Virus record (IMG/VR): IMGVR_UViG_3300026549_002532
Location: 1 to 64,000 of that record
Direction: 5' to 3' (one strand)
DNA from: a virus
Lineage: Duplodnaviria > Caudoviricetes
DNA: 64,000 bases
Shown: positions 25,893-45,750 of the stretch, piece by piece
How the letters are laid out: the number at the start of each line of letters is the position of its first letter
How positions within the stretch are numbered: position 1 is the first letter of the stretch
The notes under the pieces: model-generated
What the model was told of the DNA's origin: nothing
The model's database searches: none
The model's input: the letters and a program-made list of their open reading frames with translations, nothing else
Program-made: the position numbers and the translations under genes

Positions 25893-26498
25893 TTACTTGC
25901 TCTCTTTCTTGGCGCTCTTGCGTGCGGCTTTCTTCTTGGGTGCGCTCTCGGTGAACTGCTGCGGCTCATCGCAAATTGCTACTCTCTTGCCGGCTCTCAC
26001 AATCTTGGGCAGGTATGTGTCGAGGCTTGCGGCAGGAAAAGCGGCTTGTTGGGCGGTGATGTCCTTTGCGCTTGTACGGGTGAGGGTGATGCCTAAAACT
26101 TCGCTCAATGTCTTTGCATCATCGGCAAAAGAACCATAAAAATCGCCCATGCGGAAAAGCAAAAGTGTGTCGGGGTGCTTGTGCTTCATGGCTTCAAAAG
26201 CCTTTGCCAGTGCGCTCTGCTCGGCGGCTTGCTCGGCTTCGGGTGCTGCGCTCTCCTGCGGTGCGGCTTGCTCGGCTTGTGCCTTGCTTGCCTCAACGTC
26301 AGCCATCAATTTTGTGTAAATAGCTTTGGGCAGGATTGCACCGCTGCGCTTGCGCAATAGGAAACAATAGCGTAACGCCTTGATGGGCTGGGCGAAGAAA
26401 AATTCATCGCTCTTGGTGTTCTCACTGAGGCGGTAAACGTGCCACATTTGGCTACCGCTCTTAACTTCTCGCTTGCTTGCTAAAATCAAATTTGCCAT
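25893..26498 (-). CDS. Stand-alone MutS domain I (mismatch-binding) protein
   Basis: 'HPDTLLLFRMGDFY..F.DDA...L.ITLT...A.FP...LDTYLPKIVRAGKRVAICD' is the MutS N-terminal motif; no ATPase domain. Confidence 0.8.
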   Translation of the reverse strand: MANLILASKREVKSGSQMWHVYRLSENTKSDEFFFAQPIKALRYCFLLRKRSGAILPKAIYTKLMADVEASKAQAEQAAPQESAAPEAEQAAEQSALAKAFEAMKHKHPDTLLLFRMGDFYGSFADDAKTLSEVLGITLTRTSAKDITAQQAAFPAASLDTYLPKIVRAGKRVAICDEPQQFTESAPKKKAARKSAKKESK

Positions 26499-26547
26499 AA
26501 TGGTAGAATTTAGAAATTTATGAATAGTGTTATTAACTCGGTGCTTG

Positions 26548-26826
26548 TTATTGCTCGCAATAGACATTGCAGTAACTAACTTGTGTACCTTGCGACATAG
26601 CCATTTGTGCGGCTTGCTCGCTTGCCTCATCAGCCGTGCTTGCCTCGACTTGGAAAGTGTGTACCTCATTATCGAAGTCAACCACATCAACCGTGAAATT
26701 ATTGAGTGCGGTAGAGCGGTAAGCTTTTTTACAAACTCTGCTCTCGGCTGCGGCAGAAGTGAAAAAGTACGATGTGTTGTAAGGAGCTGTCATAACTGTA
26801 TGAATTTTTAGGAGTGAATAAATCAT
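26548..26826 (-). CDS. Small hypothetical protein
   Basis: First gene below the 26881-27017 hairpin. Confidence 0.6.
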   Translation of the reverse strand: MIYSLLKIHTVMTAPYNTSYFFTSAAAESRVCKKAYRSTALNNFTVDVVDFDNEVHTFQVEASTADEASEQAAQMAMSQGTQVSYCNVYCEQ

Positions 26827-27018: not shown

Positions 27019-27273
27019 TGACGGAAAAACTAATACAGGGCGATAGCAGTAATCAATTATTCACCTAAAAATCGTTATGGCGGCTCCCCACATCGTGCCA
27101 CTTCTGTAGCACCCGAGAGCAGATAAAACAAAGCAAGGAGAAGAACGGTGCCAGCCGTTTCCTCTCCTTACCCTGAAAAAATAGAACTGCCACCGGCAGT
27201 TTCTATAAAACAAAAAGGGTGAGCCATTGCTGACCCACCCACGGCTACGAAAGCCAAAGTTAAAATTTAGCGG

Positions 27274-29564: not shown

Positions 29565-29599
29565 CAAAGATATGGCTCAAAAGTGCGCTCTATCTGCAC
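29565..29599 (-). promoter_or_regulatory. Promoter with palindromic operator B
   Basis: GTGCGCTCTATCTGCAC 29583-29599, 10 nt from CAAAGATA 29565-29572. Confidence 0.7.
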
Positions 29600-29638: not shown

Positions 29639-30130
29639 TTAGTACATTGTTTGAGTGTCGCAATCACCTGACGGGGGCAATGGCAAGCCACGACCATCAA
29701 CCATAGTTAGCGGAGTGTAGCCGTCACGAAGTGCGTTTGTGTATTCGGCAAAAGCATAGATGTAATGCCCATTGTGCGCTTGCTCGACTGCGAGTTTGAA
29801 CCATTCGACATATTCGGGATCTCGACCGAGTGCAAATCGGGAGAGTTCCCGATATTCCTCGATGATGCGCAAAGCGTTTTCATGAGGAGTCATGTCGGAA
29901 TAATCCCACGGCAGATTGCAGTTGTGCGTCAATACGGCCAATTCATTATCGGTTGTATCGCAGAACAAACCGCAATCTTTCCAAGAGTTTTGCTTCACGG
30001 TTAGCCAACAGCGATAGCCAGCACCGTTTGGACTGATGTAAGCACAAACACGGAATTTCTCATAGCCTAGTTTATGAAGCTCGGCTACAGTATCGAAATA
30101 TTTGACAAACTGTTTATGATAATCCTCCAT
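29639..30130 (-). CDS. Hypothetical protein
   Basis: Likely start MEDYHKQF; last gene of the defence operon. Confidence 0.65.
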   Translation of the reverse strand: MEDYHKQFVKYFDTVAELHKLGYEKFRVCAYISPNGAGYRCWLTVKQNSWKDCGLFCDTTDNELAVLTHNCNLPWDYSDMTPHENALRIIEEYRELSRFALGRDPEYVEWFKLAVEQAHNGHYIYAFAEYTNALRDGYTPLTMVDGRGLPLPPSGDCDTQTMY

Positions 30131-30135
30131 AGTGT

Positions 30136-30654
30136 TTATGCGATTAGTTGGCATAGGCACGTGGCGAGCAGGACTACCTGCGGTAGTGATGGCAGCGACG
30201 TGTCGGTGCGGTTAGCGAGGTAAGTGTCAACGAGGACTTTGCGAAGCTGTTGGGCGGTAGCCGGCTCTTTCATCAGCTCGAAAAGTTCGTGGTCAATCTC
30301 TGCGCACTTGTAGAAGTTACGCAGGGTGGAGATGGCATAACTACTGGGCGAGTTGCCCGGAACACGGGGAACGAGCCGCCAGAACGGCTCACCGCTCATG
30401 TGGTAGTACGGCATCCCGATATTGGGCTTGAAGTGAGCGATGTGACGCGTGTAGCGCAAATCGTTCAACTTGAAAGCCGTGAGCAGAGCCTCGCTCAGCT
30501 CAATCTGAGGCGAGCGAATGATGCCGCACTCCACCAGGTCGATGACTGCCAACAGCAGCAGCGGCTTGTGCGGTGCCAGCTGCCCACCTTTCTTGTTCAC
30601 CGAAAGGTGGTCAAAGCACTGCAGATAATATGCCAAACCCTTATCGCCCATCAT
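30136..30654 (-). CDS. SBD/McrA-N-like modified-DNA-binding domain without a nuclease domain
   Basis: 'APHKPLLLLAVIDL...PYYHMSGEPFWRL' resembles the N-terminal domain of phosphorothioate-dependent HNH endonucleases; ATGA overlap with the helicase stop. Confidence 0.6.
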   Translation of the reverse strand: MMGDKGLAYYLQCFDHLSVNKKGGQLAPHKPLLLLAVIDLVECGIIRSPQIELSEALLTAFKLNDLRYTRHIAHFKPNIGMPYYHMSGEPFWRLVPRVPGNSPSSYAISTLRNFYKCAEIDHELFELMKEPATAQQLRKVLVDTYLANRTDTSLPSLPQVVLLATCLCQLIA

Positions 30655-33600
30655 TCAACGTCCTCAATCGCGACATCATACTTGATGTCCTCGGTACGGG
30701 TCAATTCGATGTTATCAGCGGTAGATGTATCATCGTTGGTGAAAAATCGGTTGTTTTGACCGATTTTCCAACCGTTCAAGAAACCGCCATCGGGGTAGAT
30801 TGAAAGTTTCTTTCCTGCAAAAGAAATCGTCAACTCGCGCCAATGCGTGAGCGTGCGACGCTCTTGCGACACGATGGGTTGAAGTGTGCCCTCGTACCTG
30901 TCGCCATGCTTGTCGTTGAAGTCTTCAAGCCAGCGCTCTGCAATATCTTTGAGATATTGGTCACGCAGATAGCTACCGGCAAGTGCGGCTTGAATACTTG
31001 GTTTCATATTCGGCTCGTCGTACTTCTCAATCTTGAATGAGAGTGAGAAGTCTTTGCCGATTAGTTTGACAAAGTGTTCCACAGTCTGCAGGGCAAGTAC
31101 GATGGCAAGCACGCTTTTGAGGTGTTCGTCCTGATAGAACACTTCAATCTTTCCCTTGTGCTGCTTGCAGTGTGCGAGGAACTGCTCAACAATCCCCTGG
31201 GCATTCTCTTGAATGATTGCGCCCAAAGTCTTTGAGTTGATATTGCGTGAGCGGTTTCCGCTAAGTCTGAAAATCTTGGTGGTCGGTTTCGGTGACGTGT
31301 CAACCGAAACGGCATTGATGGCCGGATTTTCAACCTGTGCGCAATACATCGTTTCGTTAGCCCATTTGTCGTTGAGTGAAGCAAATTCGGCATTGTTGGT
31401 CACATAGAGCAGACCATCAATGTAAGCGATAGGATAAACGCCCTTTGCCGCAAAAGGATTGTCGAATATCTTCACATCTTTTGTCCAGCCCTTGATGGCT
31501 TGCACCATCTGGATGATGGGCACATTCATGGGCGCATGGCCCTCGGCAGCGATGCAGAATGTGGGTTCAAGCCCTCGACCGGCGAAGTTGTTGAGGTGCT
31601 GGCCACGCCAACTGTTTTCAGCATCGCTGTAGTTCCATGTCGAGAAGTCATTGGTGACAAACAATGTCGGTGCGGTGCTTGCCTTTCTGAAAGCACGCTC
31701 CAGCTCTTGAATCGACAATTCATGAGCGTTGGGCAGCAGCGCGGCGATTTCTTTAGGCAGATTTTCAGCCGATTCTTCTTCCTCCTGAATCCACGCAAGC
31801 GCCAAATCAATGTCGATATATTTCATAAATCGCAAAGTGAACTTGTCAAGGATTACATCCTTTGTGTTGCGCTGCTTGGCTTCAAGCAACATTCGCTTTG
31901 CGATTTTCACGACTGCGTTCATGATAACCACGCTCGACAACTGATTGGCATAACCCGCGCCGCCGGGGTTGGTGTCGAACACGCAGAGGTGGCCGTTGGG
32001 CATGATGGCGAAGTCCACCGCTCCGCGCTCTTTGCCGAGGTGTTCGACAAGTGCTTGGGTAAACACCACGCCCAGCGTGAACAACAAGTTGGTTTCGGCA
32101 TCACGCTCCGAGATCCAACTGTTGCTTCCCTTGTGGCGCAAACGGATTTCGGCAAAATCGGTTTGGATTAGTCCACCAATGATGACGTTTCTTCTGATTA
32201 AAGATGGGTCATAAGAGCCGTGGCATGGTCTGCGCTGCCCCACATCTTTTCCGCTGATGACGTAGTGGAAACGAGGCTTGTCCGGGTCGCGTGGGAAGAC
32301 GGGATTCATGTCATGCGGCAGTTTCAGCGGATTCTCGCGGTCAGCGACTTCCGTCTCTATCACCGCACGACCGCATCGCTGGCAGTAGCAATAGCCGAAG
32401 CCCTGTCCCTCGTTGTAGTAGAGAATCTTGGCATAGCCCGTGTCGCGGTTGCTTCTCACCGAGAACAAGTGCGGGTCTTTCGGGCCCGAAGTCCAGTCAT
32501 CGGTGTCGATGAGCTGTGCGCTGACATGGGTATAGACATTGTTGTCAAGGATGCGCGTCTTGTCCTCATTGATGTCGGGCATGAAAGCCGCAGGCTGAAT
32601 GAGCGTCAATGCCTTATCGTCATTCACCGGCCAGTTTATCATGTGGTCGAGTGCGTTGGCATCATCAATGACGGTCTTGTTTCGGTTATGATAGATTTGC
32701 ATGAATACCCTCGCGTCCTGGTACTGGCTTGACGTTTGCACGCCACGCACGGTGTAAACGACACCATCAACGACTACCGCATTGCCGGGCGCATATTGTG
32801 CGATGGCCTCGCGCAGCGAGTAGGTCGGATTAGATGAGCTTGAACTGTTCACGTAGTCACGTTTGCCGCTGGGGTCAAGGTCAAGCGACAGCACGTTGAC
32901 CGGCATATTGGCATTCGGCGAGAAGCGATGCGTTGCCCAATAGGTAATCAAGCGAGCGTTCAACTCGTCGAAATATTGCCATTTTAACTTGTTGCGGAAT
33001 CTTGTGTTGGTCGCCGTGCGCAGAGCCACCGCATAGTCTTCGAGTTTGAGACTCAACTCGGAGTAGCAACGGCGGTTGTGCTCTGCCGCTTTTTGCACCA
33101 CATAGTTCAACTGCCCCTCAAAGATGGTGCCATCGAGCAATGCGGTCAACCCGCTGCGTAAGTCTCCGCTCAACGGCTCGGAGCATTTGCGATTGAACAA
33201 TTCATACATTGTGCCCTCGGGTTCTCCCAGCATCTGGTCGGGGCTAACGGTAGCATTGTTTTGGTCAACGATTTCTTTGAAGCCACTTGGGGTGGCCTCG
33301 ATGCGGAATGGCGTGAAGTAGTCCACTACCTTTTGGTTGAGACTACCGCCATGTGCGCCCTCGGTGAAAACTCCAAAGGCACGCACGAGGAATGAGTTGA
33401 CGTGACGCTGCACCACTTGCGGACTTTTCAGATCGACCGACGGCACTTCGACGGGTCGGCTGATAATAGTCGGGATAGGATTATACAATGTGCGCAGACC
33501 GATAGCGTCAGAGCCGCACAAGGTGATGCACACGCTGCGCACTTTGTTGTTACGTCCGCTTCGTCCGGCACGCTGCTTGTAGTTCGACGGCATGGGTGGC

Positions 33601-36600
33601 ACCGAACTCAACATCACCACTTCAAGATTGCCCAGGTCAACACCCATTTCCATCGTTGTCGAGCAAGCGAGAATGTTAATCAAGTGCTTCTTGAAGTCAA
33701 GCTGCATTTTTCTCGCAATCGCCTTATCGACTTGGGCGGTATGCTCTGCCTGAATGAACAGTTTGGGAATAAGGTGGATTGAATACAGGCGGTCGGCAAA
33801 CACGCCGTCGTTTCCCCACAGGTTGTGCTCATAGAGCAGCTTGCGATTTTCTTTTGCCCACGCTTCGAGTTTTTCGGGCGTGGGTTCACCGCTTGCCGAG
33901 CCATGATAATATGGATATGGCGCCCAGTGTTCATGCAAATTCTCGTCAAGGTCAACCGGGATGCCACCCGAAAGATAGGGCGAGAAGTGTTTGAAGTTAT
34001 TCTCGATGGGACGCAGGCTGAATGTGTGACGGTCGGCACTGTCGCTGGTCGTGTCACACAGATACACGTTCTCATAGAGCTTGAAACTGATGTTGGTGAG
34101 ATTCATACGAAGCACATCACCGCGCTCGGGAACGTGCCTTGCGTCGTCCTCATCGTAGTTCGTGGCCGTTTCCAGAATCTTGTTCTCGGGCACTTGAACG
34201 GTCTCCCACAGGGCATCGACCACATTGCTGATGCTGTCGAAATATTCGTTATAGGCATCGTTCAATGTCATGGTGTTGTCGTCGCGCACAATGAGCTGGC
34301 ACAAGTAGCGTGCCACACGCGACTGCGTGAGTTTGCCCTCCTCCATCACAGGCTTGCGGGCCGGACGGCGACGCGGCCTCTCGGTGGCGAAACGCTGGCA
34401 CTTGAAGATGTCGATGGGGTCGGTGTCGTTGATGCGCAGGAAGAACGACTGGTTACTCCTGATGTTGTAGTCAATGAACACTTGAATGAGATTGCGCCAA
34501 TCTTCGAGGGTGATGGTGTTCGCCTCATTCTCCATGAGTTCATTGAACTGCTCCACGGCTTTCGGCAGTTCCTTGATGTTCATGAGCTGCGGGTAGCAGG
34601 TCTGGAACAAGCCCATCGTCTCGAACGATGCCGCCGAGGTGAGGTGCTTTGCCAAGTACATCATCATGATGCTTTGCACATATCGCCTGACGATGATGTC
34701 GGGGATTGTGCCGTCGTCGTTCAGCTCGTCGCTGTCGCTCGACCGTTTGATGAATTGCGAGCAGAATGTTGTGCAATGGCGGTCGTTTTTCAGCAGTTCG
34801 GCAATCTCCATCCACGAGATGCTGTCTTTGAGCTTTGCCCTTTCTTTCTTGCGCTGCTGGAACAATGCCTCATATTCATCGGATTCATCGTCATATTGAC
34901 GCATTTTCTTCGTCAACTCGTCCACAATCTTCTTCTGTTTCTCGGCCTCGGCTTTGCGGCGGCACAATTCGGTGTAGATGGTGCTGTATAGCCACATCCT
35001 TTCTTGCTCAAGGTTTTGCTTGAGCGTGGCTTTGGCGGCTGCCTGACGGCTATCGACAAAGCTGATGAATTGCTGTCCGTCATGTAACATAATCGAGCCA
35101 TCGGTGGGCGGCTCGGCTTTGTCGAGCTGGTCAAGCACCGATGGAGCGAGCAGACGGCTGATGAAGTCGGCCGACAAGCGGAACTTCATCATTCGGGTGT
35201 CTTCCAGATTGCCCGAAGCGTCGTTCTCCATGTCTTTCTCGTTGGTGCGTGCGCGCGACTGCTTGCTGTTGCAATAGGGGCAACGGCACTGGGTGTTGCC
35301 CACCACGTGCCACTCTCCGGGCTTGATTTCTCCGGGCTGCACTTGGATGAGTTGGTCGCCATCGACCTTGAACTTCACATTGTTATCGCCATGGTTGTTT
35401 GCCTGGTTCGACAATGCGAAGATAATGTATTTCAAGTCACCGTCCTCATCGTCGGGGTCGGGCAAGTCGAACATATCGCTGTCATCGGTAGCGACTGACT
35501 TGTATTTCCAGTCGTTGGTGTCAACCATGCCCACTGCCACATATTCGCCGCAATTCTTGCAGCGGCTCAACTCCAGCAGCGGCACTTCGTTGCCGTCGTT
35601 GGGTGTTTGCGTATAGATGCGGAACGAGCCGTCGGCGTGCTCGGTCAAGCGCACAAACAAGCCATTGTTGGGCACGCGGTAGAAATAATGCACTTTGAGC
35701 TTCATGTCGGGCACAGGTTGTCCTGCGGCACGATAGCGCACTTCCTCTCGCTCGCACATTTCATCGACGAGCCGAAGCTGTGTTTCAACATCTGTGGTCT
35801 CGGGGAACAACTCATTCAGCGGAACAAAATCTTTGGCGAAGATGGTTTTCCAGCGTTGCTCGTCTTCGCCATGCGGAATGTTGTCCTCGCCCACGCGCTT
35901 GCCGCCTATCACCTCAACTTGCTTGGTGCTCAGTCCTGTTATGCCGGCGATGAATTTGCGCAGTTTCTTGGTTTCTTCTTTGGCTTTCTCCGGGTCGTCG
36001 GTGTTGCCGAAAGTTGCCGATGAAGTGGCAAAGCGCACATCGGCGGCGTCCACATTGAAAGCCAGCAACACACGGCGCAGCAGCAATGCCAACTCGGCGG
36101 CGCCCGCACCGGTGTAGGTGTGGGTCTCGTCGATGGCCACCCAGCGCAGACTTTGCTGCTTGGGGTCGATGAGCGCCGCGTCGGTGCCACGAAGCAGGAT
36201 GTATTCGAGCATCGTTGGGTTAGTGAGCAGGATGTCGGGCGGTGTCTGCCGCACCTGTCTGCGGGTATAGAGCATTTTGCCGAAACGGTATTTCGTCTCG
36301 CCGGTCGCCTCGTCAACATATTCGCCACGCAGCTGCTTGATGCGTGCGCGAAGTCGGTTGGCCTCGGTTGAATTGTCATCGGCTTTCGGCTCGTTCTCGG
36401 GAAGGTCGCCATTATACACCGTGTAGGTGAGATTGGTGCCTTCGAGCAGTTGTTCCAGTCGCTCTTTCTGGTCTTCCATGAGCGCGTTGAGCGGATAGAG
36501 GAAGATGGCCTTGATGGTGCGGCTTTGCACCACATCACCAGCTCCTTGTTGCAGCAGGTCATAGACCAACGGCAACATGAAGCACTCGGTCTTACCCGAA

Positions 36601-36977
36601 CCTGTGCCCGTGGTCACACAGATTGACTTGGGCTTCTGCTCGCCCTTTATCTCAACCGTGCGGCGCAGCAGGTTGTCCCACGATAGATACTGGTGCTCGT
36701 AGGGGGCGTAATACTTGCCTTTTGGCAAGATCTTGCGCCACAGGTTGCCCACGATGGCCTCGGCCTCGGCAGCCGTCACGCTGTGCACGGGCAGGTAGCT
36801 GTTCATGCACTGCACCACCGGCTCGGCGTTGTGGGGAGCGAACAGGTCGCCAATCAGCTTGCGCAGTTGCGCGATGTAGCTGGCCTGGCTGTCGTTGCTT
36901 GACTCACCGCACCACATCGAGAGCATGGTTTTCTCGACTGCGATGCGATTATTTTTATATAACTCGGCAAAGTTCAT
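30651..36977 (-). CDS. druE: Giant SF2 helicase with DUF1998/MZB-type C-terminal region; Druantia DruE-like
   Basis: 2108 aa; TGTGSGKT, YPLNALMEDQ, PPDILLTNPTMLE, DETH, STTMEMGVDLG, QRAGRSGR, 'FDTNPGGAGY'. Confidence 0.75.
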   Translation of the reverse strand: MNFAELYKNNRIAVEKTMLSMWCGESSNDSQASYIAQLRKLIGDLFAPHNAEPVVQCMNSYLPVHSVTAAEAEAIVGNLWRKILPKGKYYAPYEHQYLSWDNLLRRTVEIKGEQKPKSICVTTGTGSGKTECFMLPLVYDLLQQGAGDVVQSRTIKAIFLYPLNALMEDQKERLEQLLEGTNLTYTVYNGDLPENEPKADDNSTEANRLRARIKQLRGEYVDEATGETKYRFGKMLYTRRQVRQTPPDILLTNPTMLEYILLRGTDAALIDPKQQSLRWVAIDETHTYTGAGAAELALLLRRVLLAFNVDAADVRFATSSATFGNTDDPEKAKEETKKLRKFIAGITGLSTKQVEVIGGKRVGEDNIPHGEDEQRWKTIFAKDFVPLNELFPETTDVETQLRLVDEMCEREEVRYRAAGQPVPDMKLKVHYFYRVPNNGLFVRLTEHADGSFRIYTQTPNDGNEVPLLELSRCKNCGEYVAVGMVDTNDWKYKSVATDDSDMFDLPDPDDEDGDLKYIIFALSNQANNHGDNNVKFKVDGDQLIQVQPGEIKPGEWHVVGNTQCRCPYCNSKQSRARTNEKDMENDASGNLEDTRMMKFRLSADFISRLLAPSVLDQLDKAEPPTDGSIMLHDGQQFISFVDSRQAAAKATLKQNLEQERMWLYSTIYTELCRRKAEAEKQKKIVDELTKKMRQYDDESDEYEALFQQRKKERAKLKDSISWMEIAELLKNDRHCTTFCSQFIKRSSDSDELNDDGTIPDIIVRRYVQSIMMMYLAKHLTSAASFETMGLFQTCYPQLMNIKELPKAVEQFNELMENEANTITLEDWRNLIQVFIDYNIRSNQSFFLRINDTDPIDIFKCQRFATERPRRRPARKPVMEEGKLTQSRVARYLCQLIVRDDNTMTLNDAYNEYFDSISNVVDALWETVQVPENKILETATNYDEDDARHVPERGDVLRMNLTNISFKLYENVYLCDTTSDSADRHTFSLRPIENNFKHFSPYLSGGIPVDLDENLHEHWAPYPYYHGSASGEPTPEKLEAWAKENRKLLYEHNLWGNDGVFADRLYSIHLIPKLFIQAEHTAQVDKAIARKMQLDFKKHLINILACSTTMEMGVDLGNLEVVMLSSVPPMPSNYKQRAGRSGRNNKVRSVCITLCGSDAIGLRTLYNPIPTIISRPVEVPSVDLKSPQVVQRHVNSFLVRAFGVFTEGAHGGSLNQKVVDYFTPFRIEATPSGFKEIVDQNNATVSPDQMLGEPEGTMYELFNRKCSEPLSGDLRSGLTALLDGTIFEGQLNYVVQKAAEHNRRCYSELSLKLEDYAVALRTATNTRFRNKLKWQYFDELNARLITYWATHRFSPNANMPVNVLSLDLDPSGKRDYVNSSSSSNPTYSLREAIAQYAPGNAVVVDGVVYTVRGVQTSSQYQDARVFMQIYHNRNKTVIDDANALDHMINWPVNDDKALTLIQPAAFMPDINEDKTRILDNNVYTHVSAQLIDTDDWTSGPKDPHLFSVRSNRDTGYAKILYYNEGQGFGYCYCQRCGRAVIETEVADRENPLKLPHDMNPVFPRDPDKPRFHYVISGKDVGQRRPCHGSYDPSLIRRNVIIGGLIQTDFAEIRLRHKGSNSWISERDAETNLLFTLGVVFTQALVEHLGKERGAVDFAIMPNGHLCVFDTNPGGAGYANQLSSVVIMNAVVKIAKRMLLEAKQRNTKDVILDKFTLRFMKYIDIDLALAWIQEEEESAENLPKEIAALLPNAHELSIQELERAFRKASTAPTLFVTNDFSTWNYSDAENSWRGQHLNNFAGRGLEPTFCIAAEGHAPMNVPIIQMVQAIKGWTKDVKIFDNPFAAKGVYPIAYIDGLLYVTNNAEFASLNDKWANETMYCAQVENPAINAVSVDTSPKPTTKIFRLSGNRSRNINSKTLGAIIQENAQGIVEQFLAHCKQHKGKIEVFYQDEHLKSVLAIVLALQTVEHFVKLIGKDFSLSFKIEKYDEPNMKPSIQAALAGSYLRDQYLKDIAERWLEDFNDKHGDRYEGTLQPIVSQERRTLTHWRELTISFAGKKLSIYPDGGFLNGWKIGQNNRFFTNDDTSTADNIELTRTEDIKYDVAIEDVE

Positions 36978-36995
36978 ATATCGTAGTTTATGTGG

Positions 36996-39527
36996 TTACT
37001 GAATTATTTCCTCGGCAAACCGCTCGAAGCCGTCAAGGTCTTCGTCGGTGAGTTCGTCGCCGCGCAGTTCGAGCAGCGGCTTGCGGATTTGCTCCTCGAA
37101 GTCTCGCTTCGAGAGCCGACGCAGGGGCATGAATACGAAGAAGTACATATTGTGCTTCACGGCTTGCCGGAAGCAGTCGAGCACCGAAATGTAGTCATAT
37201 TCTTCGGCCCATGTGTCTGTATCATTCATCAGGGGGAAACGGCAGGTCAGCGACTTGGCGTTTCGCAGGTCTTGGAAGATGATGCCCCAGCGGTCGCGCA
37301 CGGCGGCATCATTGTAGTCCACGTCAATCGGCTCGGTGCCCTCGGCGTAGTTCCAGAACAGGAACCGCTCGTCGTCGGCTGGCTTCTCACCCTTTTTGTT
37401 GCCGAAAACCAAGTACAGAAAATCGGGCGCGAGCGCGTCGAGTGCCGTGGCAGGGTATCTCATGCCTTTCTCCCATGCCGCCAGTGCCGCCATGCCTTTG
37501 TCGGGATTGCCACTGATGTTGATAAACGGCTCGGCAAACAAGCCGGCGAGGTTGCCGCACGAGTAGTAACGGTAACCTTGACGGCTGAAATCGGCGATGG
37601 CCACGCGGCGGCGGTAGATGACCGGCAGGTTCAGTTGCTCGCCGTCGTCAAGATAGTTGATTACCTTGCCATCAAGATACACCTCTTTAATCAGCGTGGG
37701 ACGAAAGACTTCCACCTCGGCGCTGCCGATGTGCAACGTCACGGTGGGGCGCAACGGCTCGAAGTCAAGCGGGATTTCATCTTGCTTGACGGCCTCGGTC
37801 ACGCTGCCGTCGTCGCCGATGGTGGCGTAACGGATGGCGCAATTGTAGAAGTCGCGCACGATGGGCTGCGCCCCGTCAAGGCGTGGCAGGTAGCAAGCCT
37901 CAAAGTTGGGCAGTTGCCGCCCTTTCACGGTGAGGCGCAGCGTGACTTTGCCGTATGGCGGTCGGCTGTCGGCCGTCCATTCGGTGAAGTACGCGCCTTG
38001 CTTGTATTCCAGCAGCTCAATCTCGGTGTCTTCATCGGGATTGGCCCGGGTGATATCGTCTTTGGTGGCGAAGTGGCGGGCTATCACGTCGTCGCTGCCG
38101 AAAATGAGCGGCAGCAGTTCCTCGTCGCCATACTTTTCGTCAATCCACTTCACATAGCCGCCGTCCTTATAGTGGATGGTGTCGTGGTAGAGCCGTGTGG
38201 CGATGCGGTCATAGCCCTGGCGGTTGTAGAGCGTCAGCTCACGGTCGCCGCTTGTGAGTGTGGCTTTGTCGTAGATGAGATACCAGCCCCACGGCTCGCT
38301 CTTGCCGTGACGCTTCGAGCGGAACGGCTTGAACTCCACCGGCTCGCTGGTCGAGGCGAGGTGCAGGTGCCACTGGCCGCTGAACACCACGGCGGTTTCG
38401 CGCTGGGCGTTCTGCAGGCTCGTCCATTGGTCAACGCTGCCACTGATGCGCCACAGCTGCAGCAGGTCAGGCGAAGCCTCACGCTGCAACTCATATTCCT
38501 TGCCGTTATTGTCCATGGCCACGATTGCCAGACTGTCGAACTGTGCCGTGGGCACATCGCCGCAGTTGGCAGAACGTTCCACACCTACGGCCACAAAGCC
38601 GGTTTCCTCATCGCCGGTGTTGGAGAAGGTGATGGGCGCATGGCTCCAGTCCACATCGGCCACGGCATTGCCACCGTGCAGAAAGCGCACTCCCACCTTG
38701 AGCGATTTCAGTTGCTCGGGGTGCGCAATGCCCCACAACGACATGCGGTCGTAGCGCAGGTATTGGTGCAAGCCGCCGCGCACTTCCTCGGGGCGCAGCC
38801 ACAGGCGCAGCGTGCGCGACATGGCGGTGTAGCCCGGGGCGTTGGTGATGACCCATTCCAGACGGAACTTGTCACGCAGCACCTTGTCGTTGGCGGTGCG
38901 CATGGCGGTCACGAAGCGGGTCACCTCGCTGCCGCCGGCAAGGTCTTCGTCGTTGAACGGCAGTTTGCCGTTCAGGATTTCCTGCATATAGTCGTGCAGA
39001 CTGTGCCGCTTCACGCTCTGGCGGAAACTGATGGCGCGTGAAGCGTCCTCGATGTTTTCGAGGGTGTAATCGTCGTGGTGGTAGATGCGGCACAGTGCTT
39101 TGAGGAAGCGCAGCTTGTCGTTGCGCCCCAACTCATGGCGAATGGCGAGGCCGCCCAGCACGTAGGCCGAGTAGAGCCAACGGCGGTTGCCGCCCTCGTC
39201 GCTATAGACGAGTCGCCGCCAAGCGAAGCCCGACGTTTTCCAAGCGGTTTCGAGCTTGATGTCGGGGCGAGCGTCGAGTAGCGGACACGAGTTGCCGCTT
39301 TGATAGCGCCGCTTGTACCACTCGGCGAGATAGACAAGCAGTGCTGCGGCCCACGGCTGCTCACCATGCAGCCTGTCGGTGCTTTGGGCGGTGACTGCCG
39401 TCTCCAGCTCGCCAAACTCGCTTGCGCTCAACCGCAGCTGCCACACCCAGGGGCGTGCGGCGTCGAGCGCGGCGATTTTTGCAGTCAGTTCGCTGCTCAG
39501 TCTTCCATCTTTGTTGCTATCTCCCAT
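36996..39527 (-). CDS. DruH-like (STY4851/ECs_5259-type) partner of the helicase
   Basis: About 843 aa directly upstream of DruE; N-terminal 'LLVYLAEWYKRRY' and 'LGGL' recall the DruH N-terminal motif. Confidence 0.55.
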   Translation of the reverse strand: MGDSNKDGRLSSELTAKIAALDAARPWVWQLRLSASEFGELETAVTAQSTDRLHGEQPWAAALLVYLAEWYKRRYQSGNSCPLLDARPDIKLETAWKTSGFAWRRLVYSDEGGNRRWLYSAYVLGGLAIRHELGRNDKLRFLKALCRIYHHDDYTLENIEDASRAISFRQSVKRHSLHDYMQEILNGKLPFNDEDLAGGSEVTRFVTAMRTANDKVLRDKFRLEWVITNAPGYTAMSRTLRLWLRPEEVRGGLHQYLRYDRMSLWGIAHPEQLKSLKVGVRFLHGGNAVADVDWSHAPITFSNTGDEETGFVAVGVERSANCGDVPTAQFDSLAIVAMDNNGKEYELQREASPDLLQLWRISGSVDQWTSLQNAQRETAVVFSGQWHLHLASTSEPVEFKPFRSKRHGKSEPWGWYLIYDKATLTSGDRELTLYNRQGYDRIATRLYHDTIHYKDGGYVKWIDEKYGDEELLPLIFGSDDVIARHFATKDDITRANPDEDTEIELLEYKQGAYFTEWTADSRPPYGKVTLRLTVKGRQLPNFEACYLPRLDGAQPIVRDFYNCAIRYATIGDDGSVTEAVKQDEIPLDFEPLRPTVTLHIGSAEVEVFRPTLIKEVYLDGKVINYLDDGEQLNLPVIYRRRVAIADFSRQGYRYYSCGNLAGLFAEPFINISGNPDKGMAALAAWEKGMRYPATALDALAPDFLYLVFGNKKGEKPADDERFLFWNYAEGTEPIDVDYNDAAVRDRWGIIFQDLRNAKSLTCRFPLMNDTDTWAEEYDYISVLDCFRQAVKHNMYFFVFMPLRRLSKRDFEEQIRKPLLELRGDELTDEDLDGFERFAEEIIQ

Positions 39528-40231
39528 GTCGGTCCTTTGTAGCGGTTGCGTAATTCTTTCAATGTCATGGTGCCGTTTTCGCCGCGGTGGATCATCGAGT
39601 GGCAGTTGCTGCACAGCGGCACCAGGTCGGTGAGCGGGTTCACCTCATGCTCGCCGTCGTAGGTAGAGATAGGCTTCATGTGATGCACCTCAATGAAGCG
39701 TGTGCCGGCTTCGCCGTACAGCGCCTCGAAGTCCATGCCGCAGCACTGGCACTGGTAGCCGTAGTGGGCGAGGCAAGCCTTGCGCAGTTCTGGATTGCGC
39801 CAGGCTCGCTCCGTTTCGATATGTTTCTTCGTGCCCTCGGTCAGCTCACGGGGCTGTGGCTCGGGCGGTGCCGGTGGCGGTGTGGGTTTCGCCTTTTTCT
39901 TGGCGGGAAACTTCTCCTGGAAGTATTTCGTCTGCAAGAAAGCGGCGTACATCTTCAACGCTTGCGAGAGGCGGCTGCCGCTGGCGGTGTTCGCCTCACG
40001 CAAGGCGGGGTCGGTCTGCACACGCGAGCGAGCGTCTTCAAGTGCACGGCGGTCGCGGAGCGCATACACCTCGGCGCACTGCACGCCGAAGTAGATGCGC
40101 AGCACCTGCGGCAACTGCTGCTCGGCATACTCCATCAGGCCGTCCACATCGCCCGTGTGGGTCGCCTCCAAAAACTCACGGAACCTCGGGCGCAAGTTCT
40201 CAGCCGTGTATTTCTTTTCCTCGCTCGCCAT
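39497..40231 (-). CDS. HNH endonuclease (McrA-like)
   Basis: 'RNPELRKACLAHYGYQCQCC...IEVHHMKP...LVPLCSNCHSMIH'. Confidence 0.9.
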   Translation of the reverse strand: MASEEKKYTAENLRPRFREFLEATHTGDVDGLMEYAEQQLPQVLRIYFGVQCAEVYALRDRRALEDARSRVQTDPALREANTASGSRLSQALKMYAAFLQTKYFQEKFPAKKKAKPTPPPAPPEPQPRELTEGTKKHIETERAWRNPELRKACLAHYGYQCQCCGMDFEALYGEAGTRFIEVHHMKPISTYDGEHEVNPLTDLVPLCSNCHSMIHRGENGTMTLKELRNRYKGPTWEIATKMED

Positions 40232-40241
40232 GATAATTAAT

Positions 40242-41480
40242 TTATCGACATATTGCGTTTCGACAATTATTTATGATTTGTTTAATTTTATCATTATCCA
40301 ACCCCATAAATTTCAGAATGCAACAAAGCAAAAGAATACGTAGTTTCTTGAAATGCTGGAGCAATTCTCTACCGTCAACAACATTTTCTTTCTTTCCAAT
40401 TGGCAGAAGATGCGAATAATGATTTCTTGAATCTACAATTTCGTTTATTGCATCATCGCCAAAATCAACTTTGTTGATGCTATTAAATTCTGAACATAAA
40501 TTCCTCAAAATGATATTAAGTTTCTTATTATCTTCTATAAAGCGACAATAATAACCCTCAATGGCTTGAACAACGGCTAAAAAATTAGCACTAGAGAAGA
40601 CATGTGTGTTACCTATGCTAGATATGAGATGACTTCGTATTTGGTAAATATCTTTAGGTTCTTGAAACCATTTAGTAATTACTTTCTGATAATTATCTTC
40701 TAAGATTTTGTAATCAAAAAGATAATATTCACCATTTAATTTTGGCGAATATTCTTTTCTGAAAAAATTATGAAGTAGAATGATTTTAGAACTATTTTCT
40801 TCTTCACATAGGCTGATATTTTTACATTGCACCTGTGATAACGTTGCAATCGACAAAAATTGTTCAAATTGTCCATTTATATTCAAAACTTCTTGTATGC
40901 TAATTTTGTCATCAGGCTTTATAATGAAATCCGTCCTTTGCTCGACAATCATTCGCACTCGTTGTCTTTCTGTATTTAACAGCGCTTTTGGTTGTAGCGT
41001 AATCGAAACAGTATCGACTTTTGTCGTAATAGCAAAGTTGTCATCGTAGTTATTTGTGATTCTGTCCCACGTTTGGTTATCCTTCAAAAAATAAGATATT
41101 ATACTCGGGCAATACCAAAGTGAAAGTTCATCAAATTGCACAGTTGCTTTAGTGAAAACCATTTCCTCTAAAGAATCAATGTGCTTGCCTATAATTACAT
41201 AACAAACACTAAATTTTAATAAAGAGAATGAGCAATTTGAATGCCATGATAATGAAGAAAAGCAATCTATTAAAGTGATGTCTTTACCATCTGAAGACTC
41301 TCCCCAGATTATGGGTTGCCGTCTATCAGAATTAAACATTGCTAAGTCATCGTCATAAAAACTGCCGATGAGCTCAAGCTTAATAGATTCAGTTGGTATA
41401 TAATTCACTATTCCCGCAATTTTTTTATCTTCGTTGTCGGGAAGCCACCAAATACCTCTTATCTCGATTTGTTCTGTCAT
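40242..41480 (-). CDS. ApeA-like HEPN domain anti-phage protein
   Basis: N-terminus 'IRGIWWLPD...GIVNY...KLELIGSF' (ApeA NTD) and HEPN RX4H motif 'RNHYSH'; AT-rich. Confidence 0.75.
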   Translation of the reverse strand: MTEQIEIRGIWWLPDNEDKKIAGIVNYIPTESIKLELIGSFYDDDLAMFNSDRRQPIIWGESSDGKDITLIDCFSSLSWHSNCSFSLLKFSVCYVIIGKHIDSLEEMVFTKATVQFDELSLWYCPSIISYFLKDNQTWDRITNNYDDNFAITTKVDTVSITLQPKALLNTERQRVRMIVEQRTDFIIKPDDKISIQEVLNINGQFEQFLSIATLSQVQCKNISLCEEENSSKIILLHNFFRKEYSPKLNGEYYLFDYKILEDNYQKVITKWFQEPKDIYQIRSHLISSIGNTHVFSSANFLAVVQAIEGYYCRFIEDNKKLNIILRNLCSEFNSINKVDFGDDAINEIVDSRNHYSHLLPIGKKENVVDGRELLQHFKKLRILLLCCILKFMGLDNDKIKQIINNCRNAICR

Positions 41481-41487
41481 CGTCTTT

Positions 41488-42453
41488 TTATAGTTTCTTG
41501 ATAATAGGCTTAAAGAACTTGATAAAACGCTCGGTATAGTCCTTATACCAAACGAATATATCTTGATACTGTTTGGGGTCGGTGAAGTCGCTATTCAAGC
41601 GATAAAGGTCAATGCTTGATGTCTTTTTGCCATCAAGTCGCCGCCAATCAAGGGTAGCACCTATTGATGCTTCGGCATTTTCCTTATGTGTTAGCAGGGC
41701 ATCAAAAAATTTCTTGTCCGGGTCATCAGAAATCCACAGTTGTATGGCAACTTTATTCTCTCTTGAATTTACAGTGAGATTGATTTGGAAATTGGCACGG
41801 CCTATTGCTATGCTCATCCAATGGTCGCGTGACGGACGGTGTGGGCGGAAATGACTTGATGGATTGTTGTCCATAAATTCCCTGAAAGCAGTCCAAAAGC
41901 TCAATTTGGCATTTTGCCCATCAGTATAGTTGTCTGATGCGTTTTTGGTTGAATTCCGCACATCTCTTGACCAGTCGTTGGGCTTGGCGATGACATTAAA
42001 TCTCGGTGCCACATCGCCACTTGTACCAATCTTCAATAGTTGGATTTCAATGCCGAAGAAATTGAAGTCACTATCGGTGATGCGGTTGAGCCAGTCGATG
42101 GCGGCACGGTGTTCCTCGGTGAATCGCTCGGCAATCCAGATGATGGTCACAGCATCAAGACCGGCAGCATAGGTGAGGATTTGTCCGAGGTGGTTGTGGT
42201 CAGTTTTTTCAAGTTGGTTCTCGATGAGAACATAGTGGTCATTGCTGGAGTCCTTGCATAAAATGTCGGCACGGAAAGGTCCGACAGGTTTCTCCTGCGA
42301 TTCAACCACAAGTTCCGACAGACCGATTGACTCGGCAAGTTGAGCGATATTCTTTTCCTCGGCAAGCCACGGAGTGAAGTCGCTCGCCTCATTGTCCCAG
42401 CAGTCTCGCAAAGGAACAATCTCTATATTTGATAAATTCAGTTTCGTTGCCAT
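41488..42453 (-). CDS. NucS-like PD-(D/E)xK endonuclease fused to DUF4268
   Basis: 'EASDFTPWL', 'GPFRADIL', 'IENQLEKTDHNHLGQILTYAAG'. Confidence 0.8.
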   Translation of the reverse strand: MATKLNLSNIEIVPLRDCWDNEASDFTPWLAEEKNIAQLAESIGLSELVVESQEKPVGPFRADILCKDSSNDHYVLIENQLEKTDHNHLGQILTYAAGLDAVTIIWIAERFTEEHRAAIDWLNRITDSDFNFFGIEIQLLKIGTSGDVAPRFNVIAKPNDWSRDVRNSTKNASDNYTDGQNAKLSFWTAFREFMDNNPSSHFRPHRPSRDHWMSIAIGRANFQINLTVNSRENKVAIQLWISDDPDKKFFDALLTHKENAEASIGATLDWRRLDGKKTSSIDLYRLNSDFTDPKQYQDIFVWYKDYTERFIKFFKPIIKKL

Positions 42454-42457
42454 AGAT

Positions 42458-43237
42458 TCATATTTTATTCATGTCTATACTAATGCCTGCATTTTTCATC
42501 TCTTTTGCAAGTTGAAATTTCCATGAGTCATTTTTATCTATTGAGACATATAAAACACCTGAAAGATCACTGGGAATTTCAACACCATCTTGCACAAGTG
42601 CGCAAACTCTGTTGCGACCTAATCTTGCATAAAGATACCCATGCTCAAAAATCACATTTTGGCGTGCACGAGGCTTCAATGTTGCATTATCTTCATTGAC
42701 AGAACCTCTATCGCAATTAGTGTATATTACAACTCCAAAATCAGCATCTGACAATTCTTCAAATTTCTCAATTATGGTTTTACCAGAATTAGGTTGCTCT
42801 TTTAGAATTATAGGTTCGCACTCCAACTTTTCAAGAAAACGTGCAACTTTCTCAATATACTCTTCATTGTGTCCATGAACAATGAAGACTTTTGTTGTTC
42901 CAGTTGAGTTTTTTATAGGGGAACTTTTAACTTCCACGGAATCAACAATTTTATTTAACGCATTTAATATGCCTAAAATTTCTTGAATAATTTGAGGACG
43001 ATAGCAGTATTTTTCAAACCTTACAAATAGGTCTCTAACTTCTTGCTCATAAGAACCTACCTTGATACAAGATAAATAAAGATTAACAAGTCCTTTCCAA
43101 TCTGCATAAGCCTTGCTATCTTTCAAAGTATAAGCCGTGTATGTTCTAATGACACCTCTTTGTGGAGGAACAAAAGAAATACCTTCACGAATTTCATCAC
43201 CTGTACGAATAAGTTCGTCTAATGTAATATTACTCAT
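42458..43237 (-). CDS. TIR-like domain protein (CAP12/PycTIR family)
   Basis: 'KVFIVHGH', 'GKTIIEKFE', 'RARQNVIFEHG', 'IPSDLSGV'. Confidence 0.85.
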   Translation of the reverse strand: MSNITLDELIRTGDEIREGISFVPPQRGVIRTYTAYTLKDSKAYADWKGLVNLYLSCIKVGSYEQEVRDLFVRFEKYCYRPQIIQEILGILNALNKIVDSVEVKSSPIKNSTGTTKVFIVHGHNEEYIEKVARFLEKLECEPIILKEQPNSGKTIIEKFEELSDADFGVVIYTNCDRGSVNEDNATLKPRARQNVIFEHGYLYARLGRNRVCALVQDGVEIPSDLSGVLYVSIDKNDSWKFQLAKEMKNAGISIDMNKI

Positions 43238-45750
43238 TTATTCCATTGATTGAATGTGGGATTCGATAAACTCTTGCTCAAACATATCAAGGCCATACTT
43301 CAAATAGAGCTGGCGGTCGATGTCTGATATTGACCGTGACCAGTCTATATCAGAGTTGTCTGTGAAGTCCTGAATTGGAACATATGCCCATACAGCTGGT
43401 GGGGTATGTTGCGTGATTTTTAAGGTACCCACTAGGCATCTTAAAAATTTAGTTCTTAGATATTTCGCGCAATTAATCGCCTCTTTTTCTGTGTCAAAAG
43501 CACCAATACTAATAAATGTTGATGTGGCAGAATCCCCTGGCTTACCAATTTCAGACTTGCCAATTATTCGTGCTGGCACTGGATTGCCTACAGTTCCAGC
43601 GGCTCCGTCTGCCTCAGAAATAAAGACTTTATGTTTTTCTATATTGTTGTTTTTAGGATAACGAGGAGATAAGTATTTTCTAAAAACATATTTCCAAACA
43701 CGATTAGAGCCAACAAGACCTAAAATGCGATAAAAATCACTTTCATTATCAACAATATCATGAAATACGTATGGCAGGGCTTCAATCGTTGATGTTTTAA
43801 GCTCGTATTCCTCGTTCGGACCTAATTCAGTTACGGCAGGGCGTTTAGATTGAATGTATCTTAAGCGATCCATTGCGCTGTTCGGAAAATCAGTCAAAAA
43901 AATGTCATTAAATTTTAAATCAGATCTTCCTCCAAACACTAATGATTTAAGACTCTCCGAATCTTTGAGATCAAATTTTGAAGCAATTCCTCTTAGAGTA
44001 TCATTTGGGAGAAATTTTTTTATAGGGGAGTATTGAGCATTTGCATTGCGCAAAATGATTACAATACCGCCATTAATACTCACACTTGGGAAACAAACGC
44101 TTGAGTCTTGAGAAAAAAATGCAACTCTAAGATGAGGATCGTTTAACATTTTTTGATTCCATATTGCAGGTGTAAGACCTGCATTAAATAAGAATCTAGC
44201 TGGCGAAATCAGAGTATATAAATCGCACAATGCTTCAGCCAAATTATAGAAATAATGATAAACTGGAGCTTGGCGATTATTTACATTATTAGTTTCTTGA
44301 TATGGTGGGTTGCCCACTACAGCATCAAAATTTATCATAGCTTTACTTGTTGTGCCATTCCAATATCCGAGAGACTTAATTGCTGCTACAAGACCGTCTT
44401 TGTCTGTTTTGGCACGTTCAATTAGTTTATCTGCTTTAATATTTAGTTTTTTGTCAGGTTCACGGAAGCCCATAAGGGTGCGACGTGTGATGCTCGCCGC
44501 CATCGGGGTGTTGCAAATCACGTAGATGTTTTTGCCCACCACGTCGTCCCACGCGGCTTGCTCCTCGCCAACCGAGAGGTTGTCGATGGGGTTGTCAAGC
44601 AAGCCCACCTCCTCGTAATACTTCAACAGGCGGCGGTACATCGTGTAGGTGACATAGAGCGGATAAAGCCCCGTCTTGGAATTAATCTCCAGCACACGCG
44701 AGGCGATGCCTTCGCCCTCGGCAATCTTGTGGAACACGTTCTCGGTCACGTCGCCGTGGTCCACAAAGCGAGGCTCGGTGGTGTCGATAAACTCGACCAC
44801 GTTGCCGTCCTCGTCGAGCACGGCTCGCTGGTTGTCGCCGTCGAACTTCTCGTTGAAGAAACAGTAGCCGCCCAATGTGTCGCTCATGTGCATATTCACC
44901 ACGCGCCACGGGGTGAGCACCGTCTCCTTGTCGGGATTGTGGAAGGTAGAGAATATCCAGGCGATGCGCTTGATGCGGTCGTCGATGTGCATCGAGTCGG
45001 CCTCACGGGCAAGGGCACGGATGCGCTTGCCGGCAGCGGTGAACACCGCCGGATTGTAGCACTTCTTGAACTGGTTGAACTTTTGCTTGGTCACGCCACG
45101 GGGCATGAACTCTTCCCATGAGGCGGGATCGACCAGCGATGTGAAGTTGTCGATGGTGATGCCGGTGTCCTCGTCGTCGAGCTTGGCACCGTAGATGAGC
45201 AGCGGTATGCGCAGCGAGATGCCGCGCAAGATGGTGATGCGCTTGTCGCGCTCGTCGCGTTTTTTCTTCTTCTCGGCACGCTCACGCTCCAGCTCGGCAC
45301 GTTCCTCGGGCGTAAGATCTGCTTCAGCTTCCTTGCCTTTCTTGCGAGCCTCACGCATCTTCTGGCGGATTTCGGCACGCTTTTCTTCCAATTTCTTGCG
45401 TTGCTCAGGGGTGAGGTTGTCAATATCCAGGGCCGAAGCCTTTTTGGGCTTTTCCATGTTGGTAGTCTTGGCAATCTCAGCTCCCAGCTCATTCAGCTCT
45501 TTCAACTCGTCGCCGGCGATGTCGAGCAATGCGTCCACATCGTAGAGGCTGGTGTCGTTGAAGCCGTTGCGCACCACGCGGTCAACATAGACCTGCTGCA
45601 AGCGACCGAACAGTTCTTCGGCATCATAATCCACCATCTTGCCACCTTTCAGCGAGATGACGTTGCAATATTGCAGGAACTCATCCATGTTGAGGATGTC
45701 CTGCTGCCTGTCGGTGGTGGTGGCGCTGCGCTTCTCCTTTTGGGTGAGAG
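43238..45750 (-). CDS. Eco57I-type N6-adenine methyltransferase/TRD half of a frameshifted helicase-MTase fusion
   Basis: 'VLEINSKTGLYP' (motif I) and 'FDAVVGNPPYQ' (motif IV); joins the helicase ORF via a frameshift near 45750. Confidence 0.8.

Follow-up and report, generated by a model that had tools for sequence, protein, structure and literature searches.

A probable three-gene form of Druantia type III with an HNH nuclease, adjoined by a stand-alone sulfur-binding domain gene, in a prophage of rumen Bacteroidales

Gene content of the locus

The stretch of DNA analysed here, called the window throughout, comprises the first 64,000 nucleotides (nt) of IMG/VR record IMGVR_UViG_3300026549_002532, which that resource classifies as a complete provirus of 76.7 kb. 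The window is a prophage of rumen Bacteroidales with a defence island in its middle: genes for a tape measure protein, a large terminase, and a head protease flank the island on either side, and the public runs containing the provirus are bovine, goat, and sheep gut metagenomes. Our subject is a DruH-DruE pair of the Druantia type III kind within this island, together with the HNH nuclease gene that precedes it and the gene for a stand-alone sulfur-binding domain (SBD) that follows it. The initial annotation had drawn these genes, along with a hypothetical gene, as a tightly spaced array of five on the minus strand, and the coordinates of all five open reading frames (ORFs) bear out that layout and its overlaps (lengths in amino acids, aa).

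40231-39497, minus strand: HNH nuclease gene, 244 aa
39527 (ATG) to 36996, minus strand: DruH-like gene, 843 aa, overlapping the end of the HNH gene by 31 nt (39497-39527)
36977-30651, minus strand: DruE, a DruE3-type YprA-like helicase with putative C-terminal nuclease-like modules, 2108 aa
30654-30136, minus strand: stand-alone SBD, 172 aa, its ATG lying over the TGA of druE as ATGA (30654-30651)
30130 (ATG; alternatively GTG 30160) to 29639, minus strand: hypothetical gene, 163 aa from the ATG, 5 nt past the SBD stop

The DruE, DruH-like, and HNH proteins

The 2108-aa protein is a full-length DruE3, and its earlier assignment as the DruE of Druantia III stands: it matches the PADLOC DruE3 model PDLC00036 from position 3 to position 2021 of 2023 (E 2.7e-266), and both DEAD and Helicase_C domains are recovered by Pfam. 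The MZB/DUF1998 family (Pfam PF09369) gave no match in it; the PADLOC model is covered to its end. It also aligns with the 2108-aa DEAD/DEAH box helicase of PDB entry 9tu7 (E 6.4e-80), which we take to be a DruE, and the alignment includes a C-terminal cysteine cluster (CxxC...C-H) and an H-x-R-E-L-T motif. Among the genome contigs searched, a single close relative was found, in a Prevotellaceae metagenome-assembled genome (MAG).

The 843-aa protein had likewise been described as DruH-like, and this holds for one domain only. Residues 57-179, and no others, match the PADLOC DruH3 model (E 1.1e-6) and the NCBIfam model YjiT_fam (E 4.2e-7; 28 bits against a cut-off of 150). When canonical DruH from two other Bacteroidota loci was compared with it by hhalign (E 2.8e-5 and 2.2e-4), the alignment was similarly restricted to the N-terminal 110-120 residues. 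The similarity in this YjiT_N domain is real and nothing aligns beyond it; we call the protein DruH-like, with the resemblance to DruH confined to the predicted N-terminal domain. Its predicted structure (predicted local distance difference test score, pLDDT, 82) is helical at the N-terminus, beta-rich over a long central part, and mixed towards the C-terminus, an architecture resembling that published for E. coli DruH (PMC13192584). A Foldseek comparison of this model with a copy of the PDB that lacks the DruH structures cited in PMC13192584 returned meaningless multidomain matches, including clostridial neurotoxin chains, with template-modelling scores of 0.08, which we do not read as similarity. 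Homologues of the DruH-like protein fall into more than 300 clusters and were seen in 245 metagenome stretches; a profile search of viral contigs gave no close relative. Relatives of 1130-1740 aa bear an extra N-terminal region, and neither Pfam nor PADLOC models detect an HNH domain inside them. A Rosetta-stone comparison by hhalign of the HNH family with three of these long relatives also yielded nothing (E 0.4-0.6).

The HNH protein opens with a confidently predicted helical N-terminal domain (about residues 1-105), which a proline-rich linker joins to an HNH domain of the McrA type (about residues 130-225). The latter matches PF01844 (E 3.8e-8), and its best relative of solved structure is the HNH domain of EcoKMcrA (6ghc; E 1e-5). 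The residues C161, C164, H183, H184, C207, N209, C210, H211, and H215 are invariant in 22 members of the family, so that the CxxC, HH, N, and CxxCH..H pattern is retained even though the members are only 34-74% identical to the protein of the window. The gene thus encodes an intact McrA-type HNH with a beta-beta-alpha-metal motif and zinc-binding cysteine pairs on either side, and the predicted model (pLDDT 85) has a fold like those of the McrA, Cap5, and ScoMcrA HNH domains. The N-terminal domain found no relative in Pfam, the PDB, or the Atlas, and a profile search of viral contigs with the HNH family recovered only unrelated phage HNH domains.

Conservation of the HNH gene with druH and druE

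We compared 84 loci whose DruH-like proteins are 39-73% identical to that of the window and group into 25 DruH clusters at 90% identity; individual loci are designated below by L numbers. An HNH gene of the same family is present in 79 of the 84, and in 49 of the 50 that extend 8 kb or more beyond druH on its upstream side. In 61 of the 79 loci with the HNH, representing 20 of the 25 DruH clusters, the HNH gene ends between -130 and +10 nt relative to the start of druH, the usual arrangement being a 16-nt overlap. The association extends to two further lineages of the helicase. In L131, the order is HNH, DruH (997 aa), and DruE, joined by 4-nt overlaps, with no type IIG-like gene (see below) detected upstream. 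In L144 and L145, a 1067-aa DruH' is followed by a 2024-aa DruE' only 26% identical to the DruE of the window and then by HNH', which in L144 matches the hidden Markov model of the HNH family over its whole length (E 1.6e-42). One HNH family therefore accompanies three DruE lineages in two gene orders, a recurrence that argues for a functional link and against mere shared ancestry. Neither the long DruH relatives nor canonical DruE3 loci from other Bacteroidota have an HNH of this family.

The proposal that the HNH is a dedicated part of a Druantia III variant is accordingly upheld by its presence in 79 of the 84 loci and in the two additional lineages. We conclude that HNH-druH-druE probably constitutes a Druantia III variant of three genes, which occurs commonly in Bacteroidales of the gut and rumen, with the SBD as a separate gene of the surrounding backbone. 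The YprA survey and the structural preprints describe DruH and DruE as the components of type III, which has the subtypes III-A and III-B, and the sole link between Druantia and an HNH nuclease that we found in the literature is ZorE of Zorya II, which E. coli Druantia III is reported, in a preprint of 2026, to recruit independently of ZorAB (PMC13192584). The three-gene form is seemingly undescribed, as no account of it was found in the literature.

The type IIG-like gene and the cargo between it and the HNH gene

Upstream of the HNH gene in the island lie the following genes.

43238-47204, minus strand: type IIG/ISP-like helicase-methyltransferase gene, with ResIII and Eco57I domains and a match to PADLOC REase_MTase_IIG
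42458-43237, minus strand: TIR gene, with Pfam and PADLOC matches
41488-42453, minus strand: DUF4268 gene, with Pfam and PADLOC matches
40242-41480, minus strand: ApeA/HEPN gene, with Pfam and PADLOC matches

The PADLOC models matched in the stretch of the last three genes are PDC-S35, PDC-S11, and PDC-S58. These genes are spaced 0-10 nt apart and form an AT-rich cargo (40242-43237) inserted between the type IIG-like gene and the HNH gene; their guanine-plus-cytosine (GC) content is 0.32-0.45, as against 0.60 for HNH and druH. The type IIG-like gene itself is read in two frames in the window, first 45681-47204 (frame -3) and then 43238-45778 (frame -1), with the switch near 45732-45754, and its GC content drops from 0.57 to 0.47 along its length. 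Its orthologues are single ORFs (1307 aa in L006 and 1349 aa in L043), and the switch could reflect a frameshift, a pseudogene, or an assembly error.

The constancy of this gene raises an alternative in which the HNH is the nuclease subunit of a type IIG/ISP-like helicase-methyltransferase and Druantia is merely its neighbour. The type IIG-like gene is present in 49 of the 50 loci with at least 8 kb of sequence upstream of druH, its product begins with ResIII at residue 24 and has no detectable nuclease domain, it lies only 2-275 nt from the HNH gene in several clusters, and in cluster 1 the HNH gene has stayed near it despite an insertion before druH. Yet the HNH gene overlaps druH in 20 of the 25 clusters, while it can be separated from the type IIG-like gene by up to 5.7 kb of unrelated defence genes; such genes intervene in the window as well. 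It is also found with druH and druE in L131, where nothing upstream matches the type IIG-like gene, and after druE in L144, in which the stretch upstream of druH is cut off; and in the window it is intact beside a frameshifted type IIG-like gene. We therefore regard this alternative as improbable.

Cargo is also seen on the other side of the HNH gene. In one cluster of loci, a gene is inserted between HNH and druH (L057:5778-9599 and L082:4814-9595); its product, of 1273-1593 aa, combines a nuclease domain of the CoiA-like kind with DUF6035, DUF7830, and WG repeats, and may be a candidate single-gene defence.

From the type IIG-like gene through the hypothetical gene, all genes of the array overlap or are separated by gaps of 0-18 nt. 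Because the whole island is so tightly packed, short gaps and overlaps are no special evidence for any one pair, and the ATGA junction of druE and the SBD gene alone says little. On the coding strand of the island, boxes of the Bacteroidetes -7 type (TAnnTTTG) occur only at 29565-29572 and 43279-43286 (minus strand). These are consensus matches only, and their positions are compatible with a single transcript from the TIR gene to the hypothetical gene and with a new unit from the 237-aa gene onward. Scans for sigma-70 promoters and for terminators gave nothing informative inside the operon; a strong terminator-like hairpin lies at 27217-27240, after a gene for a 141-aa protein. Bovine gut metatranscriptome contigs match short pieces of druE, the SBD gene, and their neighbours, although contigs from RNA libraries are no proof of transcription and stretches that they leave uncovered carry no meaning either.

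The slot after druE

In the sister loci, the genes directly after druE are separated from it by gaps of -4 to +28 nt and are of the following kinds.

After druE, 22 loci: GmrSD, of two families
After druE, 9 loci: McrB, then McrC
After druE, the remaining tightly spaced cases: SNF2, ResIII, UvrD-like, or DUF1848 genes

The GmrSD or McrBC genes begin 1-12 nt past druE or overlap it by 4 nt, and modification-dependent (type IV) enzymes thus predominate in this slot. The fixed frame of the locus consists of the type IIG-like gene followed by HNH, druH, and druE; around it lie three slots for cargo.

The stand-alone sulfur-binding domain

The 172-aa protein is, as judged by profile and structure-based comparison, a true sulfur-binding domain (PF26340, DNA-SBD_ScoMcrA) and a predicted reader of DNA with phosphorothioate (PT) modification. 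It matches the SBDHga structure 8h0l (E 3.1e-12), in which the sulfur cavity is formed by H25, K26, L75, P76, and H79 (PMC10602919); the corresponding residues are H29, K30, M81, P82, and H85, with H29, K30, and P82 invariant in 23 members of the family. In an SBD, the His-Lys pair of the cavity belongs to helix A2, and the hydrophobic residue, the Pro, and the second His belong to helix A4. The NCBIfam model NF045808 is matched in its N-terminal part (E 1.7e-6; 27.4 bits against a cut-off of 180). The protein has no nuclease domain in the same polypeptide, and its description as a nuclease-less, SBD-like reader is therefore confirmed by the structural match and by all five cavity positions. 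The stand-alone form is conserved in 39 clusters. Its C-terminus is a conserved hydrophobic tail of about 13-19 residues of the form ...VLLASCLCQLIA, ending in -LIA (window 30136-30200), which is lacking in members of 149-150 aa and might act as a membrane anchor, as a docking peptide, or as a degron. As the published census of SBDs dropped sequences shorter than 200 aa as presumed truncations (PMC10602919), this family of about 170 aa escaped description.

The genomic contexts of the SBD differ from those of the HNH. Among the 25 DruH clusters, the SBD follows druE only in the window, in its 87% relative (L006, the same as L046), and in the distant L122. Close homologues, 71-82% identical, are found after a type I HsdR gene (L003), after the gene for a 1230-aa DEAD-box helicase in a type I-like array (L126 and L148), and after the HNH' of the other Druantia lineage (L144); a more distant one follows a gene for a UvrD-like helicase (L127). 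The DNA comparisons agree with this picture: in blastn alignments of the window with L006, L144, and L126/L148, homology sets in at most about 10 nt from the start codon of the SBD gene, the DNA upstream being unrelated, and extends downstream through genes for 352-aa and 141-aa proteins and a MutS-I cassette. That cassette encodes a protein consisting of MutS domain I alone with an N-terminal extension, which is kept in the backbone (window 25893-26690, L144:13820-14428, and L126:13903-14541). Since the homology breaks at the SBD start codon, the SBD gene is the first backbone gene beside a cargo hotspot, in which two kinds of Druantia and two kinds of type I-like restriction-modification (R-M) systems alternate. 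The SBD is thus probably no component of Druantia, and it is likely to be cotranscribed with whatever cargo lies upstream.

Two other arrangements point to additional uses of the domain. Downstream of druE in L122 (18909-21528), a WYL/WCX regulator, a 176-aa SBD, and a PD-(D/E)XK nuclease are encoded, the SBD gene overlapping its neighbour at both its start and its stop; the unit looks like a split Hga-type PT-dependent enzyme. In L001:1550-10450, the array comprises two DUF6339 genes, two genes for C5 DNA methyltransferases, an AAA_5 gene, a gene for a 778-aa protein of unknown family, and, after these, the gene for a more distant SBD of 149 aa. This may be another system using a stand-alone SBD.

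The hypothetical gene has no match in Pfam, PADLOC, NCBIfam, or the Atlas. It is absent after the SBD gene in the related loci L006, L144, L126, and L001, and is unlike the small ORFs that follow the SBD in other loci. An 8.8-kb contig from sheep gut carries the SBD and hypothetical genes at about 93% likeness and diverges exactly at 29639 and at about 30637, its flanks being unlike those of the window, so that both genes can move together from one set of flanks to another. Its earlier inclusion in the operon is thus right as to position, 5 nt from the SBD gene, and fails as to conservation; it is variable cargo and no conserved part of the system.

Discussion

Relation of the SBD to the HNH

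The initial annotation had joined the SBD and the HNH into a split reader-nuclease pair, on either side of the helicase pair, that would define a new modification-sensing subtype of Druantia. In its fullest form, this proposal makes HNH, DruH, DruE, and the SBD one four-gene subtype in which the SBD would read PT-modified DNA and direct the HNH to it. Several findings speak for such an arrangement. A single model of SBD-HNH enzymes, NF045808, is matched in its N-terminal part (positions 6-138) by the SBD protein and in its C-terminal part (positions 150-227) by the HNH protein, nearly all known SBDs have an HNH in cis (PMC10602919), and relatives of the SBD in Bacteroidota occur in frames of about 330 aa whose C-terminal halves bear an HNH-like motif. 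Moreover, the HNH' stop overlaps the SBD start in L144, in another Druantia III lineage, and a single transcript would fit the lack of a Bacteroidetes -7 box on the coding strand from 43279 to 29572. Conservation separates the two genes, however: of the two parts of the claim that both are conserved with the helicase, that for the HNH stands (79 of 84 loci), whereas that for the SBD is restricted to the window, its 87% relative, and one distant locus. Thus, 23 of the 25 DruH clusters that keep the HNH are without the SBD. In addition, the same SBD (71-82% identical) follows helicase genes of type I-like R-M systems with no HNH gene between, the breakpoint in homology lies at its start codon, and the SBD of L122 has a WYL regulator and a PD-(D/E)XK nuclease of its own. 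The co-occurrence of the SBD with druE being this rare, the split pair as the mark of a new subtype is not supported, and we consider the four-gene subtype improbable, although the SBD and the HNH may conceivably cooperate in trans.

Druantia III is reported to be inactive on hypermodified T4 DNA (10.64898/2026.05.13.724758), so that a type IV partner would be complementary to it, and a PT reader fits this description. It is for this type IV theme of the slot that we give the largest share, tentatively, to a role as a type IV-like sensing arm, by analogy with the GmrSD and McrBC enzymes encoded in the same place. Such an arm would detect phosphorothioated foreign DNA in a modification-dependent manner, with the cleavage occurring in trans.

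A quite different role, which we regard as unlikely, is counterdefence or self-protection, in which the stand-alone SBD would mask PT sites from the Ssp, Dnd, or SBD-HNH systems of the host or would mark self for adjacent translocases. Its conservation as a backbone gene whatever the cargo, its lack of a nuclease, and its position about 3 kb upstream of the MutS-I cassette on the same strand would suit such a function, and SspE is reported to depend on PT in the host DNA (PMC9646914). Nevertheless, five different contexts have the SBD gene overlapping the stop codon of the defence gene before it, so that it is probably expressed with the defence cargo, while in distant members the partners are a PD-(D/E)XK nuclease and a WYL regulator. 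DndC was found neither in the provirus nor in the one related host genome searched, a weak negative as that MAG is incomplete.

It is slightly less probable still that the SBD, with its hydrophobic tail, is a portable adaptor that docks on the helicase or nuclease encoded upstream, be it DruE or HNH, HsdR, or the DEAD-box helicase. If it were, the Druantia-HNH system would be turned on PT-modified invaders, and one reader would retarget several unrelated defence motors.

Weighing of the three-gene variant

Several observations weigh against a three-gene Druantia III variant with a separate SBD. In 5 of the 25 DruH clusters, the HNH gene lies 0.4-5 kb upstream of druH, and in the largest of these five, an unrelated gene for a nuclease-like protein of 1273 aa stands before druH, with the HNH gene staying nearer the type IIG-like gene; the latter has no recognised nuclease domain and may be the gene to which the HNH truly belongs. 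Most of the 84 loci come from one Bacteroidales lineage, and their synteny may in part be shared descent. The assignment of the DruH-like protein to DruH is based on about 130 residues. On the side of the SBD, two of the four types of cargo found upstream of it are Druantia plus HNH, and the HNH' stop in L144 overlaps its start by 8 nt, which together leave room for a functional tie between SBD and HNH, the role of the SBD being deduced from position and fold only.

A possible mechanism and its parallels

By analogy with the Druantia III of E. coli, DruH would sense infection, upon which DruE would load on exposed single-stranded DNA, unwind it, and cut it with the nuclease modules at its C-terminus. 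The McrA-type HNH, whose gene is presumably coupled to druH in translation, may add the nicking or cleaving of DNA intermediates exposed by DruE. It would then be a hard-wired counterpart of the reported ZorAB-independent recruitment of ZorE by the Druantia III of E. coli, and ZorE offers a published example of an HNH that works on intermediates produced by DruE (PMC13192584).

With Druantia III-A, the DruH-DruE system of E. coli (Doron 2018; PMC13192584; 10.64898/2026.05.13.724758), the locus shares a full-length DruE3-type helicase, in which a Zn-binding cluster and C-terminal nuclease-like modules are putative, a large gene directly upstream whose product has a YjiT_N domain and a predicted beta-rich centre, and residence in a mobile element among other defence systems. 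It differs in that its partner protein has 843 aa and can be aligned to DruH over only about 130 residues, and in that a type IIG-like gene is a constant upstream neighbour in the clade of the window. Within the Bacteroidota too it stands apart, its DruE being about 25% identical to the canonical DruE3 of other members of the phylum. This clade also differs from the two-gene form of Druantia III in the conserved third gene, that of the HNH, which usually overlaps druH.

The HNH nickase ZorE of Zorya II is likewise an HNH nuclease genetically linked to Druantia III. In ZorE, an N-terminal DUF8245 precedes the HNHc domain, and the gene is encoded with zorA and zorB. The HNH of the window differs in its N-terminal domain, which has no DUF8245 match, its match to the PADLOC ZorE model (E 5.5e-5) covers the HNH motif only, and its gene is situated within the operon, overlapping druH. 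ZorA and ZorB are absent from the window, the neighbours being ApeA, DUF4268, TIR, and the type IIG-like gene.

The SBD, for its part, is comparable to those of ScoMcrA and SprMcrA (SBD-HNH) and of Hga (SBD-PD-(D/E)XK) (PMC6224610, PMC7470945, PMC10602919), with which it shares homology to SBDHga, the five cavity positions, and several backbone contacts; the HNH of the operon is of the McrA type, as are those of ScoMcrA and SprMcrA. In contrast to ScoMcrA and Hga, it belongs to a conserved family of about 170 aa that has no nuclease in cis and carries an extra hydrophobic C-terminal tail. At the level of the island, the SBD occupies the slot in which sister loci have GmrSD or McrBC. Defence islands are known to pair a system blocked by hypermodification with a type IV enzyme, as in the case of BREX with BrxU/GmrSD. 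The SBD differs from these enzymes in having no effector domain, and its putative complementarity with Druantia would be a further parallel.

Significance

A stand-alone SBD family is a candidate for a new use of PT reading, either in trans-acting restriction or in counterdefence, and the three-slot locus is useful for mining new defence genes in gut Bacteroidales. The clade of the window is probably underannotated, its DruH partner matching only about 130 of the 1100 positions of the PADLOC DruH model. Druantia III has been described as a two-gene system, and how it destroys phage DNA is still debated: preprints of 2026 variously assign the cutting to DruE, to DruH, or to a borrowed ZorE. With an HNH embedded in the operon throughout a large natural clade, a clean genetic system is at hand for asking what the HNH adds to DruH and DruE. 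More generally, this clade suggests that the partnership of Druantia with ZorE in E. coli reflects a general need.

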